Source of the DNA: a virus
Lineage: Duplodnaviria > Heunggongvirae > Uroviricota > Caudoviricetes
Length of the DNA stretch: 4,515 bases
Virus record (IMG/VR): IMGVR_UViG_2675903429_000009
Strand: one strand, 5' to 3'
Part shown: piece by piece, positions 1,397 to 4,429 of the stretch
Layout: each line of letters begins with the position of its first letter
How positions within the stretch are numbered: position 1 is the first letter of the stretch
Translations under genes and position numbers: made by a program
The notes under the pieces: generated by a model
The model's database searches: none
What the model was told of the DNA's origin: nothing
Seen by the model: the letters and a program-made list of their open reading frames with translations, nothing else

Positions 1397-2505
1397 TGAA
1401 CCTTTTTTCGTCCACTGGCGGAACGTTTCGCCGCTGTGTTCACGGATTTTTCAGCACCACCAGCAAGGATATAAGTAAAATCGCTGCTGCTGTGGGTGAA
1501 TGCCGCGTTTACTATCTGCGAGCGTGTGCTGTAGCTGCCTGTGCTTATGCCGCGATGGGTTAATGATGCCTGTGCCATATCGAAAAGGCTCATCATGGCG
1601 TAAGGGTTGCCGCGTTCTGCCTGTTCATGTCCCAGACGCGCATTAAGCCCCTGACGCATTGCATCGCCGGTTATGTTGCCGTTATCCGTGTACGCGTAGT
1701 AAAGATTTGCGGGGGTGGTTTTGTTTGTCGGTGTCGATTCTTTACCCATAGTGAGTAAAAGGCGTTCGCGTGCATCCTCAACGCTACAGCCTGAATCAGC
1801 AAGACAACTTATAGCCAGGTCGTTATATCTTCCATTGAACGTGCCAAACAATTCACGTATCCCGTTGAGTCGTTCCTGTTCTCCGCTGCCAGTTTTCTGG
1901 CTGATCATGCTTTTAATATTTTCCGGCATATTCGAAAAATCTCCGATTCGTTTTGATTCAATTCTGGCCATTGCTGTAATCGCGGGTATAACCTCATCTG
2001 CGAAGCCATTAGCCTTACACTCATTGCCATCCATCCAGGTTTCCGCCTCCATCATGGCGGTGATTTCCTGTTTGCTCCTGCCCGTTCTTCCGGCGTAGGT
2101 TTCCGCCATCGTGTCGCCCAGCTTGTCCATCAGGTCAGCAAAGCGGCGAACGTCGCCCGACACTCCGGCAGTAACACCACGGGGGGCATGTATCATCATC
2201 ATCGCGTTTTCAGGCATAACGATGTGATCGCCACACATGGCAATAAACGAGGCCATAGAAGCCGCCATGCCTTCAATGTGTACAATTTTCTTTGCCGGAT
2301 GATTTTTCAGGGCGTTATAGATAGCCAGCCCTTCAAAGATGTCGCCACCAGGTGAATGGATGCGAAGATGGATTTCAGGCACATTACCGCACGCGTTGAT
2401 CTCGTCAGTAAGTGCCGATGCTTTTACACCGTACCCGCCGATCTCGTCATAAATGCGTACATGTACAACATCAGCCATAGCCTTAATGGAAAACCATGTT
2501 TTCAT
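1360..2505 (-). CDS. ClpP-family (S14) prohead serine protease with a ~180-aa C-terminal extension (scaffold-like or N-terminal capsid region)
   Basis: The translation contains the ClpP-like catalytic motifs GMAASMAS (Ser) and MMIHAP (His), comparable to ClpP GQAASMGA and MIHQP. ATG at 2505-2503 is preceded by AGGAG 9 nt upstream and overlaps the stop of the upstream small ORF (ATGA). 381 aa. Confidence 0.85.
   Translation of the reverse strand: MKTWFSIKAMADVVHVRIYDEIGGYGVKASALTDEINACGNVPEIHLRIHSPGGDIFEGLAIYNALKNHPAKKIVHIEGMAASMASFIAMCGDHIVMPENAMMMIHAPRGVTAGVSGDVRRFADLMDKLGDTMAETYAGRTGRSKQEITAMMEAETWMDGNECKANGFADEVIPAITAMARIESKRIGDFSNMPENIKSMISQKTGSGEQERLNGIRELFGTFNGRYNDLAISCLADSGCSVEDARERLLLTMGKESTPTNKTTPANLYYAYTDNGNITGDAMRQGLNARLGHEQAERGNPYAMMSLFDMAQASLTHRGISTGSYSTRSQIVNAAFTHSSSDFTYILAGGAEKSVNTAAKRSASGRKKVHCQTSMRHVVLA
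1402..1408 (-). other. candidate -1 ribosomal frameshift slippery heptamer A_AAA_AAG
   Basis: Seen in sequence: the minus strand reads CGA AAA AAG GTT in the protease frame (codons R-K-K-V near the C-terminus), i.e. the X_XXY_YYZ heptamer A_AAA_AAG in the correct phase. The -1 frame continues as GGT TCA TTG TCA AAC TTC CAT..., which is exactly the capsid ORF frame. Confidence 0.4.
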
Positions 2506-2696
2506 AGCCAGGCTCCTAACGTTGCCCTGTACCAGTATTCAACCGCGCTTCTCGCAATCTGCCCTTTCGTGGGTACTGGCATTCCAGGGTGATGACTTTT
2601 AATGAACTGCTGATAGCGTTCGAGCTTCTCCATAGTTCCGGCGTCTATGTGCACTGTTGCACTTTTATCCGGTTTTCTGCTGTTGTTCTCTGGCAT
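2502..2696 (-). CDS. small ribbon-helix-helix-like protein, translationally coupled to the prohead protease
   Basis: The ORF is open from 2729, but the likely start is the ATG at 2696-2694, which sits 7 nt after a GGAGG (2708-2704); the ATG ATG at 2729 has no Shine-Dalgarno sequence. 64 aa. The pattern of a short beta-strand (ATVHID) followed by two helices (AGTMEKLERYQQFIKS and TKGQIARSAVEYWYRA) resembles the Arc/MetJ/CopG fold by eye. The stop overlaps the protease start (ATGA). Confidence 0.45.
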   Translation of the reverse strand: MPENNSRKPDKSATVHIDAGTMEKLERYQQFIKSHHPGMPVPTKGQIARSAVEYWYRATLGAWL

Positions 2697-2769
2697 AAGT
2701 CTGCCTCCGTTATGATTAACGGGCATCATTATTGATCGATAAAACTGGTAAATAAATCATTTTCTATCT

Positions 2770-2799
2770 AAAAATCAGATTATGTATTTTCTGATTTTT
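2770..2799. promoter_or_regulatory. perfect 10-bp inverted repeat AAAAATCAGA-N10-TCTGATTTTT (operator-like)
   Basis: Seen in sequence, 40-70 bp upstream of the RHH/protease/capsid operon start. On the minus strand it overlaps a weak sigma70-like candidate (ATGACA, about 16 nt spacer, TAATCT). Confidence 0.4.
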
Positions 2800-2893
2800 G
2801 TCATACCAGCAAAAGAATTGACTAATTATTGCCACGCCAGCACAATTAAGACTCATCATTTCGGTAGTGGCAGTATCCTTTGTCGCTGACAAA

Positions 2894-2928
2894 GCGCCTC
2901 CGGTGGCACCATCGGGGCGCTTTTTTTT
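2894..2928 (+). terminator. strong intrinsic terminator, plus-strand orientation
   Basis: GC-rich hairpin GCGCC(T)CCGGTG-GCAC-CATCGGGGCGC (2894-2920, about 11 bp with one bulge and one G-U pair) followed by T8 (2921-2928). An alternative hairpin GGCGC-T8-GCGCC (2916-2933) is followed by TGTTTTTT. In minus-strand orientation the hairpin is followed by only three U residues, so it is mainly a plus-strand terminator. Confidence 0.6.
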
Positions 2929-3126
2929 GCGCCTGTTTTTTGTAAATGCTTTCGGGAACGTTCCGGCGTCGAACAAAAAACAACCTAATTCGACACTAAA
3001 AATTTTTATTTTGCCATATATCAATAACTTAAACTGGTGGTGATGGTGACATAAAAATCAAAAAATACGCCTTTTTCCGCGAACCGCCCGCCCCGTGGAC
3101 AGGCCACCCCCACCAGGAGTACCTAC

Positions 3127-3149
3127 AAAAAAGCCGGATTGCTCCGGCT
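3127..3149 (-). terminator. intrinsic terminator of the orf81-ssb operon
   Basis: 7-bp stem AGCCGGA/TCCGGCT with loop TTGC (3132-3149). On the minus strand it is followed by UUUUU (3127-3131) and starts 15 nt after the ssb stop codon. Confidence 0.55.
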
Positions 3150-3164
3150 TCTGTCACTCGTTGC

Positions 3165-3587
3165 TTAAAACGGTATGTTATCCCCGTACGGATCATCATT
3201 CCCCGCCTGTTGTTTGGCCCTGTTCAGTGCATCAGTGGCCTGCCCCTGTTGGCCTTTTTTACCGCCCGGTCGCGCCGTTCTGGCACTGATTACACTGTCT
3301 GCGATAACCTGCCAGCCCTGCCGCGTTTCTCCGTTCTGGCCTGTCCACTGGCTTACCTGCATGTTACCCGCCACGCTCACCAGCTCGCCTTTCTGGTGCT
3401 TTGCCAGTGCGTCAGCCTGTCTGCCAAACGCCAGGACGGATAACCATATCGTCGCCGTTCCGTCATCTGCCTGGCTGCACGGCAGGGGAACCGCCATACT
3501 CGCCATCGTCATTTGCGTACCCTTGCTGGTGGTCTTTAACTGCGGGTCAGCCACCAGCCGCCCGTAAGCCGCTATCTGTGCTGTCAT
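3165..3587 (-). CDS. ssb: single-stranded DNA-binding protein (SSB family), 140 aa
   Basis: The N-terminal OB-fold region aligns by eye with E. coli SSB (IAAYGRLVADPQLK versus VILVGNLGQDPEVR; WLSVLAFGRQADALAKHQKGELVSVAGNMQVSQWTGQNGETRQGWQVIADSV versus [50 protein letters not shown]). A Gly/Gln-rich linker and an acidic tail ending NDDPYGDNIPF match the conserved SSB DDDIPF tip. GGAG Shine-Dalgarno sequence; the ATG overlaps the upstream stop (ATGA). Confidence 0.85.
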   Translation of the reverse strand: MTAQIAAYGRLVADPQLKTTSKGTQMTMASMAVPLPCSQADDGTATIWLSVLAFGRQADALAKHQKGELVSVAGNMQVSQWTGQNGETRQGWQVIADSVISARTARPGGKKGQQGQATDALNRAKQQAGNDDPYGDNIPF

Positions 3588-3829
3588 GCTGTCTGCTCTC
3601 CGGTTTTAACGTTGATGGTTGTCACCTGTTCCGCTTCGGCAATCTCCCGTTCTGTCAGCGTGGCAAAGTTTGCCGCCGTCGTGGTCATGAATGCGCTTAT
3701 CAGTTCGGGATGTGCTTTCGCGTATCCTTCCCCGGCGTTGCGGTCGATGATTTTTATCGCCACCCTCAGCCAGTGTTCTGTCAAATCAAGGGCGTGAGAT
3801 TGTGGTTTTTTGGCGTGCTTCGTTGTCAC
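3584..3829 (-). CDS. hypothetical protein (81 aa) co-transcribed with ssb
   Basis: GTG start at 3829-3827 with GAGG about 9 nt upstream; stop overlaps the ssb ATG. No family recognised from the sequence. Confidence 0.5.
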   Translation of the reverse strand: MTTKHAKKPQSHALDLTEHWLRVAIKIIDRNAGEGYAKAHPELISAFMTTTAANFATLTEREIAEAEQVTTINVKTGEQTA

Positions 3830-3874: not shown

Positions 3875-4103
3875 CTTCACCTGTTCACCTTTTGCAATTT
3901 TCCCTTTTTATTCATGATGTTAATGGGTTAACAGTTTCACAAAAACTATTCACCAACTGTTCACCACTGTTCACCCTTAAAGCTCAATAAAGAATCAAAA
4001 AGGTGAACAGTGAATAGTTTGGTGAACAGTTCATAAATAACTGTTCACCCTATAATATACTGATATAAAAGACATTTATTGCAGGGTGAACAGTGGTGAA
4101 CAG
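3875..4103. repeat. iteron array / putative origin of replication (P4-type TGTTCACC octamers)
   Basis: Seen in sequence: perfect CTGTTCACC at 3881-3889, 3957-3965, 3967-3975 and 4041-4049; perfect inverse GGTGAACAG at 4002-4010, 4021-4029, 4085-4093 and 4095-4103; degenerate copies at 3875-3881, 3947-3954 and 4009-4017. Adjacent copies are spaced 10 bp apart. The array is flanked and interspersed by AT-rich stretches (3841-3870, 3895-3950, 4051-4080). From memory, TGTTCACC is the phage P4 type I iteron bound by alpha protein at ori and crr. Confidence 0.75.
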
Positions 4104-4132
4104 TTATTCCATAAGTTTAATTTTTTCCATCG

Positions 4133-4429
4133 TCATTTGTGACCTATTGCACATGATGGCATCCAGTCTTCTGAATCCTCTGTCAGGGTCACATTTGAAC
4201 GCAAACCGTGCTTCGTTTTCCGTTTCATATACTCCCTGCCATATTCCGCCATTGCCCCCGGCATATCTTTACCGAAGCGCGTCAGTGTTACAGGTTTACC
4301 GAATCCGTGTGCCCTCATATATGCCAGATAGGCGTGATAAAGATACCTGCGCGGACTGAACGGAATAATTTCGGCATTACCCACTAACAGACCATCACAC
4401 ATTACCGACGACATGAGGTGTACTGGCAA
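4133..4429 (-). CDS. small ORF resembling the C-terminal region of phage/plasmid primase-helicases (possible gene fragment)
   Basis: The translation contains YLYHAYLAYMRAHGFGKPVTLTRFGKDMPGAM, which matches by eye the conserved Y-x-x-Y-x-x-W-x-(5-6)-x-P-x-S/T-x-x-x-F-G motif found near the C-terminus of P4-alpha/D5-type primase-helicases. The start is weak: TTG at 4429 or ATG at 4414, neither with a clear Shine-Dalgarno sequence, and an in-frame TAG lies at 4439-4441. The two other minus frames are open to the window edge, so a frameshifted longer gene is possible. Confidence 0.4.
   Translation of the reverse strand: MPVHLMSSVMCDGLLVGNAEIIPFSPRRYLYHAYLAYMRAHGFGKPVTLTRFGKDMPGAMAEYGREYMKRKTKHGLRSNVTLTEDSEDWMPSCAIGHK

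Follow-up and report, generated by a model that had tools for sequence, protein, structure and literature searches.

Why should a strong terminator for plus-strand transcription stand where every neighbouring gene is read from the minus strand? The question is raised by a 4,515-nt stretch of viral DNA (IMG/VR record IMGVR_UViG_2675903429_000009, here called the window), in which positions 2730-3164 had been proposed as a 435-bp non-coding locus for a divergent small RNA or a regulatory leader. The orientation of the neighbours was as described: the ORF listing and the annotation agree in placing all credible genes of the window on the minus strand. The interval also lacks a conserved ORF, because its T-runs vary from 6 to 9 bases among copies. 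Nevertheless it is not a 435-bp sRNA locus, since about 160 bp of it form a cos site and its left end belongs to the probable control region of the capsid operon. What the interval marks is the point where the replication zone of a phage satellite meets its late (capsid) zone; it holds a cos site, a probable control region for the capsid operon and, between them, a plus-strand cassette. The cos site and the late-operon control region are its main content and already known biology. We therefore treat these two first and then the cassette.

A satellite junction with a cos site and a probable late control region

The window is part of a phage satellite of about 10 kb, of the Gram-negative PICI or helper-embedded-satellite kind. 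Such elements are organised in integration, Bro, replication and late zones (Fillol-Salom et al., PMC6092414; Tommasini et al., bioRxiv 10.1101/2022.07.18.500453). In annotated genomes, the matching E. coli island is likewise about 10 kb long and carries integrase, HTH/AlpA-like, Icd-like, primase and SSB genes, a small ORF and a protease-capsid fusion gene; in one strain it adjoins a tRNA-Ile gene. A related satellite of O157:H7 lies within the terminase large-subunit (gpA) gene of a lambdoid prophage and is co-oriented with it (NZ_CP066759.1, 1752620-1762800), which is the helper-embedded configuration of Tommasini et al.

Along the minus strand of the window we found the C-terminus of a D5-type primase (4133-4429), iterons GGTGAACAG between the primase gene and an 81-aa ORF (~3880-4105), the gene of a single-stranded-DNA-binding protein (SSB; 3165-3587; PF00436, E = 3.9e-16), which closes the replication zone, and a ClpP-protease/major-capsid fusion gene (from 2505 downward). 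The iteron stretch holds copies of GGTGAACAG and CTGTTCACC in direct and inverted orientation and resembles P4-type origin iterons; matches of Rfam miRNA families to it were discarded as spurious. The capsid gene of this island type looks frameshifted in the window: 13 bp present in the intact E. coli protease-capsid fusion gene are missing at ~1436-1445, both here and in an identical IMG/VR twin, so that the gene falls into two frames, a 381-aa ORF (2505-1360) and another from 1396 downward. A run of N (518-757), masked or unsequenced, also falls within the capsid part of the fusion gene.

When positions 2500-3600 were compared with 50,697 phage records, the match was limited to 2971-3131, where 23 lambdoid phages, including mEp460, 1720a-02, CP-1639 and Stx2 phages, aligned with 74-91% identity. 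In the two records inspected, mEp460 and 1720a-02, the matching segment is situated between the lysis genes and terS, stopping about 40 bp short of the start of terS. The minus strand carries a cosN-like 12-mer, GGGCGGGCGGTT, at 3082-3093; its lambda counterpart is GGGCGGCGACCT, and both have a CGCGG flank (3077-3081 in the window, minus strand). Likewise, minus-strand CACGGGGCGGGCGGTTCGCGG was aligned to the lambda left end, GGGCGGCGACCTCGCGG. A cosN-like sequence with its conserved flank and homology just upstream of terS, the marks of a lambda-like cos, are both found here. By this homology, 2971-3131 is a satellite copy of the cos site of a lambdoid helper, at which cleavage and packaging are predicted. 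The packaging site as outlined by phage homology and the lambda left-end alignment spans 2971-3126 on the minus strand, with a cosB-like part at 2971-3076 and the cosQ side at 3094-3126. It follows from the cos homology that about 40% of the supposed non-coding region is packaging signal. PICIs and helper-embedded satellites carry the helper's cos at this very position (PMC6092414, PMC6739421, bioRxiv 10.1101/2022.07.18.500453).

Two satellite features border this site. A perfect 10-bp palindrome, GGAACGTTCC (2955-2964), stands between the plus-strand terminator and the phage-like part of cos; it is satellite-specific, invariant in 12 islands and missing from phage cos regions. On the other side, the replication-zone operon is ended by the ssb terminator GCCGGA-GCAA-UCCGGC-U6 (3127-3148, minus strand), which is kept even where the upstream gene differs (SSB, PerC-family or other). 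In several islands (L009, L010, L017 and L018, ~1125-1400), a PerC-family regulator replaces SSB just upstream of cos. Cos, both terminators and the cassette are unchanged beside the PerC-family gene; the block from cos to capsid behaves as a separate module.

At the left end of the interval, the first small ORF of the late operon (2502-2696, minus strand) would encode 64 aa from ATG 2696 or 75 aa from ATG 2729, and overlaps the start of the fusion gene. It corresponds to phrog_4934, of unknown function, and gave neither a Pfam match nor a PDB sequence match. A role as Rpp was rejected by sequence, and the ORF matched no solved structure. The true start is probably ATG 2696, with GGAGG 7 nt upstream and RefSeq copies of 64 aa; this choice would make 2697-3164 the untranslated interval. 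The Shine-Dalgarno GGAGG (2704-2708) is partly enclosed in a leader hairpin CCGTT...AACGG (2706-2723; together 2704-2723, minus strand), which the scans list in the window and in islands L011 and L218 and which is nearly invariant in 12 islands. Overlapping the Shine-Dalgarno, it might limit translation initiation. An inverted repeat, AATCAGA-N10-TCTGATT (2773-2796), lies about 75 bp upstream of the capsid-operon start codon and probably serves the late-operon promoter, which it would precede, as an operator or activator site; even islands with a capsid of only 55-58% identity retain its half-site CAGATTA. All of 2697-2800 is nearly invariant among the 12 islands and includes A/T-rich promoter-like sequence. 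We infer that the capsid operon has its control region and leader here.

The plus-strand cassette and its predicted RNA

The hairpin that raised the question, GCGCC (2894-2898)...GGCGC (2916-2920) followed by T8 (2921-2928), is present as described and is listed by the scan as a plus-strand terminator-like site; four such sites were found, against 1.6 +/- 1.1 in shuffles. It has the form of an intrinsic terminator (2891-2928, plus strand): a 14-pair G+C-rich stem (core 2894-2920) directly followed by U8. Read on the minus strand, the same hairpin has A8 before it and only UUUGU after it. The stem is nearly invariant across 16 variants. It had been called the strongest terminator of the region, which is true for the plus strand only, the ssb terminator being a good one on the minus strand. 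A second, weak and conserved hairpin overlaps it at 2915-2942, listed by the scan as GGGCGC-T8-GCGCCT then GTTTTTTG (in RNA, GGGCGC-U8-GCGCCU then GUUUUUUG). Its 5′ arm is the 3′ arm of the main stem, so the alternative pairing proposed at 2916-2933 exists; its attenuator-like reading found no support, as discussed below.

Two plus-strand promoters had been suggested upstream. One, TTGTCA (2798-2803) with ACTAAT (2821-2826), can be read in the window but is unconserved in related islands, and we dropped it. The other, TTGACT-17 nt-CACAAT, is also present, although its coordinates were one base low and are actually 2818-2823 and 2841-2846. This sigma70-like promoter (2818-2846, plus strand) has 9/12 matches and is the only such match in 1.3 kb, where 1.3 are expected by chance; since one match is the chance level, only its conservation counts. 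TTGAC of the −35 and A2 and T6 of the −10 are kept in 16/16 variants. Elsewhere the −10 reads CAATAT or CAGTAT, and in the commonest variant (B) it scores 3/6, for a total of 8/12, so that the scan does not call a promoter. With these key positions conserved, the proposed arrangement, a plus-strand terminator lacking a plus-strand ORF and preceded at about 70 nt by a sigma70-like promoter, is supported.

Variation was examined in the window, 11 E. coli islands and IMG/VR contigs, which together gave 16 distinct versions of the promoter-to-terminator segment; these stand for only 3-4 independent lineages, too few for a statistical test of structure. The window and viral contigs identical to it make up type A, and most E. 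coli islands, O157 included, are of type B; a B-like form (SCU171) and type C (SCU111) complete the set. A non-coding RNA of about 77 nt (2852-2928, plus strand) is predicted, its start placed from the −10. It would consist of a single-stranded 5′ end of ~14 nt, hairpin 1 (2866-2887), an A-rich linker and the terminator. The fold of 2852-2930 reached −32.3 kcal/mol (z = −4.1), equalled by 1 of 200 shuffles, and all four variant types folded as hairpin, terminator and U7-9 with z between −3.6 and −4.7. Hairpin 1 and the terminator are joined by the linker GACAAA or UGUAAAA. Hence the 3′ end typical of Hfq-type sRNAs, a terminator with 7 or more U that follows a hairpin and an A/U-rich linker, is found in every variant type. 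This is not so for the seed and target expected of such RNAs: the 5′ part is the most variable, and no significant target was detected in the window or in helper terS.

The pattern of conservation is uneven. Invariant in all versions are ATTAAG.CTC around the predicted start, TTTGTCG, the whole terminator, the T-runs, GCGCC, GTAAAT and the palindrome. By contrast, 2798-2890, covering the promoter spacer and RNA body, shows 58-65% identity versus 86-92% in the flanks and is the least conserved block of the spacer. A conserved seed would show the reverse, and a neutral spacer could also have this pattern. Two rare substitutions bear on the strand. The change of the last stem base from C to T in AR24 and that of GCGCC to GTGCC in SCU111 keep G-U pairs in a plus-strand RNA, while both would be A-C mismatches in a minus-strand RNA; hairpin 1 contains 2-3 G-U pairs in types A and B. 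These G-U-preserving changes hint at a plus-strand RNA. In the common variant v3, a G-to-A change breaks one stem pair. No covariation was seen among the 3-4 lineages, because the terminator stem, the sole one supported by RNAalifold, barely varies.

The cassette was present in 156 of 5426 complete E. coli genomes and absent from 50,697 phage and 72,556 plasmid records; it occurs in satellites only. Genomes that carry it include NZ_CP066759.1 (around 1,759,610-1,759,854) and NZ_CP027573.1 (around 3,910,000). A pattern scan of metagenomes returned nearly exclusively chance matches in unrelated G+C-rich DNA. Against 4227 Rfam families, at E up to 10, the interval produced only sub-threshold terminator or hairpin noise. 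An immunity RNA acting on the head operon had been suggested as a possibility; at the same limit the P4 CI, C4 and IsrK immunity-RNA models had no match in the whole window. Neither tRNA nor tmRNA was found. For a trans target among the mRNAs of the window, the best score was −21.9 kcal/mol, versus −18.9 +/- 2.1 in shuffles, and is insignificant. A 7-nt match to AUGAUG at 2729 was set aside as a target, being lost, by eye, in the B variant, and the RNA is neither antisense to helper terS nor a terS remnant, with no similarity or complementarity to it.

Any minus-strand transcript running through cos in the direction of the capsid operon, including helper late transcription in helper-embedded copies, would be perfectly complementary to the predicted RNA, so that an antisense role is conceivable. 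The normal capsid mRNA would not overlap it, because the probable late promoter lies beyond the RNA gene; the RNA is predicted to diverge from this head-operon promoter and not to overlap it.

Competing readings of the cassette

In our preferred reading, to which we give a probability of about 0.45, the cassette works as a genuine small transcription unit that points away from the capsid operon, makes a ~77-nt Hfq-type RNA and shields cos by its terminator. In this model the moderate sigma70 promoter at 2818-2846 would fire on the plus strand and yield a satellite-specific sRNA with the architecture of Hfq-binding sRNAs, with a predicted start point, a presumed stability and a putative regulatory role. 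The terminator and U8 would stop plus-strand transcription before cos, and the terminase of the lambdoid helper would cut and package the satellite DNA through cos at 2971-3126. A bolder version, which we hold to be quite improbable, is that the fast-diverging 5′ end and fixed 3′ end mark a type-specific Hfq-type regulator that could pair with late transcripts, read-through or helper-driven, crossing cos into the capsid operon, or act on helper or host RNAs. Plasmid copy-control RNAs offer an analogy for such satellite-type specificities: changes in their loops alter specificity.

A simpler idea, unlikely in our view and still to be taken seriously, is that the cassette only insulates: a two-way terminator would keep the capsid operon apart from cos and the replication zone, the promoter hexamers would be chance or vestigial, and any RNA would be a functionless by-product. 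Its main argument comes from more distant satellites. Islands with 55-58% capsid identity retain cos, the ssb terminator and the late control region, and have a different terminator in the cassette's place, GCCGGA-U6-UCCGGC-U6, co-oriented with the capsid operon. What is shared, as judged from these sequences, is thus the presence of a terminator placed between cos and the late promoter. The A8 and UUUGU that flank the hairpin on the minus strand also recall two-way terminators; bidirectional intrinsic terminators likewise have a G+C-rich hairpin set between an A-tract and a T-tract (A8...hairpin...T8). Moreover, conservation is lowest in the RNA body, and the common variant has a weak promoter. 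Yet compared with bidirectional terminators the hairpin of the window is very unequal, having U8 and then a second U6 on the plus strand, whereas its minus-strand tail, UUUGUCAG, is poor, with UUUGU as its only tract. This asymmetry suggests an element built mainly against plus-strand transcription, which would need a plus-strand source nearby. A further argument against insulation is the invariance of TTGAC and of A2 and T6 of the −10 within an otherwise variable patch.

The block 2891-2970, conserved as DNA with almost no compensatory change, could instead serve packaging: it would extend cosB in a satellite-specific way and be bound or bent by terminase or a protein of the satellite. This segment is invariant, holds GCGCC, GGCGC and GCGCC repeats, T-tracts and the palindrome, and abuts the phage-like cosB where helper terS would begin. 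In lambda cosB, the TerS-binding sites R1 and R2 form an inverted repeat, visible in the lambda sequence, which supports such a role. A PICI-specific cosB has been documented, Rpp-TerS recognising the special cosB of EcCICFT073 (PMC6739421). We consider the packaging role more doubtful still than the preceding proposals, since a G+C stem of 14 pairs with T8 behind it is what textbooks show as an intrinsic terminator, the phage-like cosB is complete without the block, reaching to ~40 nt before the start of phage terS, and divergent islands without the block yet keep cos. In addition, no Rpp homologue was recognised by sequence in the 4.5-kb window, where the small ORFs 2502-2729 and 156-416 gave no PDB match to RppC. 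Least credible of all is the attenuator or regulatory leader of the original prediction, in which the overlapping hairpins would switch to control a downstream gene. GGCGC (2916-2920) can indeed pair either with 2894-2898 or with 2929-2933, but the two structures are very unequal (14 pairs versus 5-6 around a loop of 8 nt), and the large hairpin persists when 2852-2945 is folded to minimum energy. Further downstream the plus strand offers nothing to attenuate: it runs through cos and then antisense to ssb and has no co-oriented ORF. Nor did any riboswitch or leader family of Rfam match. The attenuator is therefore disfavoured on both counts.

Relation to other satellites and to known small RNAs

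Taken as a whole, the interval may be a locus of known kind plus a candidate sRNA, which would be a new member among the sRNAs of mobile elements; by sequence, we rate this at slightly less than even odds. Satellites of this kind spread virulence and defence genes. As they are packaged via cos, a map of cos, the two terminators and the late control region helps their engineering and annotation. How capsid (late) genes are switched on in E. coli PICIs and helper-embedded satellites is poorly understood; an sRNA gene back to back with the late promoter, if real, would give a handle on this switch. If the cassette is only an insulator, the outcome is routine annotation.

Among other satellites, a related Kluyvera element has a 249-aa gene that diverges from the same spot, next to the control region of the late operon; a divergent promoter there would thus not be unusual in the family. 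Loci of Kluyvera, Trabulsiella and Rahnella reached through the small late ORF were set aside, having neither cos nor cassette at that place. In divergent islands (L218, L221, L225 and L230), CAGGTGAAAA occurs in two direct copies between the terminator and cosN; they may be the repeats to which TerS binds in another type of cosB.

The cos site itself has close counterparts in EcCICFT073 (cos1 and cos2) and 11capE. There too, a lambda-like cosN with its flanks is found in a satellite without terminase genes of its own, between replication genes and captured late genes, and is homologous to the helper sequence upstream of terS. The cosB of EcCICFT073 differs and is Rpp-dependent, whereas the satellite of the window keeps the phage-type cosB side, with homology reaching to ~40 nt before the phage terS start.

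For the RNA, the published EcOnc list (Table S2) names 63 orphan RNAs bound by Hfq in O157 Sakai. The satellite was not found in the Sakai prophages Sp6, Sp8, Sp9, Sp12 and Sp14. EcOnc12 (Sp9), and EcOnc10 and EcOnc11 (Sp12 and Sp10), are encoded in the gap from Rz to the terminase genes, on the strand opposite to late transcription. EcOnc12, an abundant Hfq-bound RNA, has homologous sequence ~200 bp from the mEp460 cos region, outside the satellite (L002, 361-420; L263, 5523-5570, minus strand). As a relative of the predicted RNA it was rejected: it stands beside cos in Sp9, yet is unrelated in sequence. Esr41, a known EHEC island sRNA, was also discarded, being located in SpLE1 and not in the island of the window.

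A phage satellite with a small RNA proposed to control its gene expression is known in P4, whose CI immunity RNA (Rfam C4 / IsrK) is comparable in this respect. P4 CI is processed from the early-operon leader in the Bro zone and acts on seqA and seqC sites; the candidate described here differs in having its own predicted promoter and in standing at the cos junction. Similar in layout are AgvB and AsxR, prophage-encoded Hfq-binding anti-sRNAs of EHEC that were detected experimentally (Tree et al. 2014, PMC4104026). They are short RNAs of a mobile element (51-60 nt, versus ~77 nt predicted here) that oppose the late transcription of the element, and their 3′ terminator part is conserved while the 5′ part varies. 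The differences are that there is no sequence similarity, and that AgvB and AsxR occupy a moron site downstream of Q in prophages, whereas the predicted RNA would be encoded beside the cos site of a satellite.
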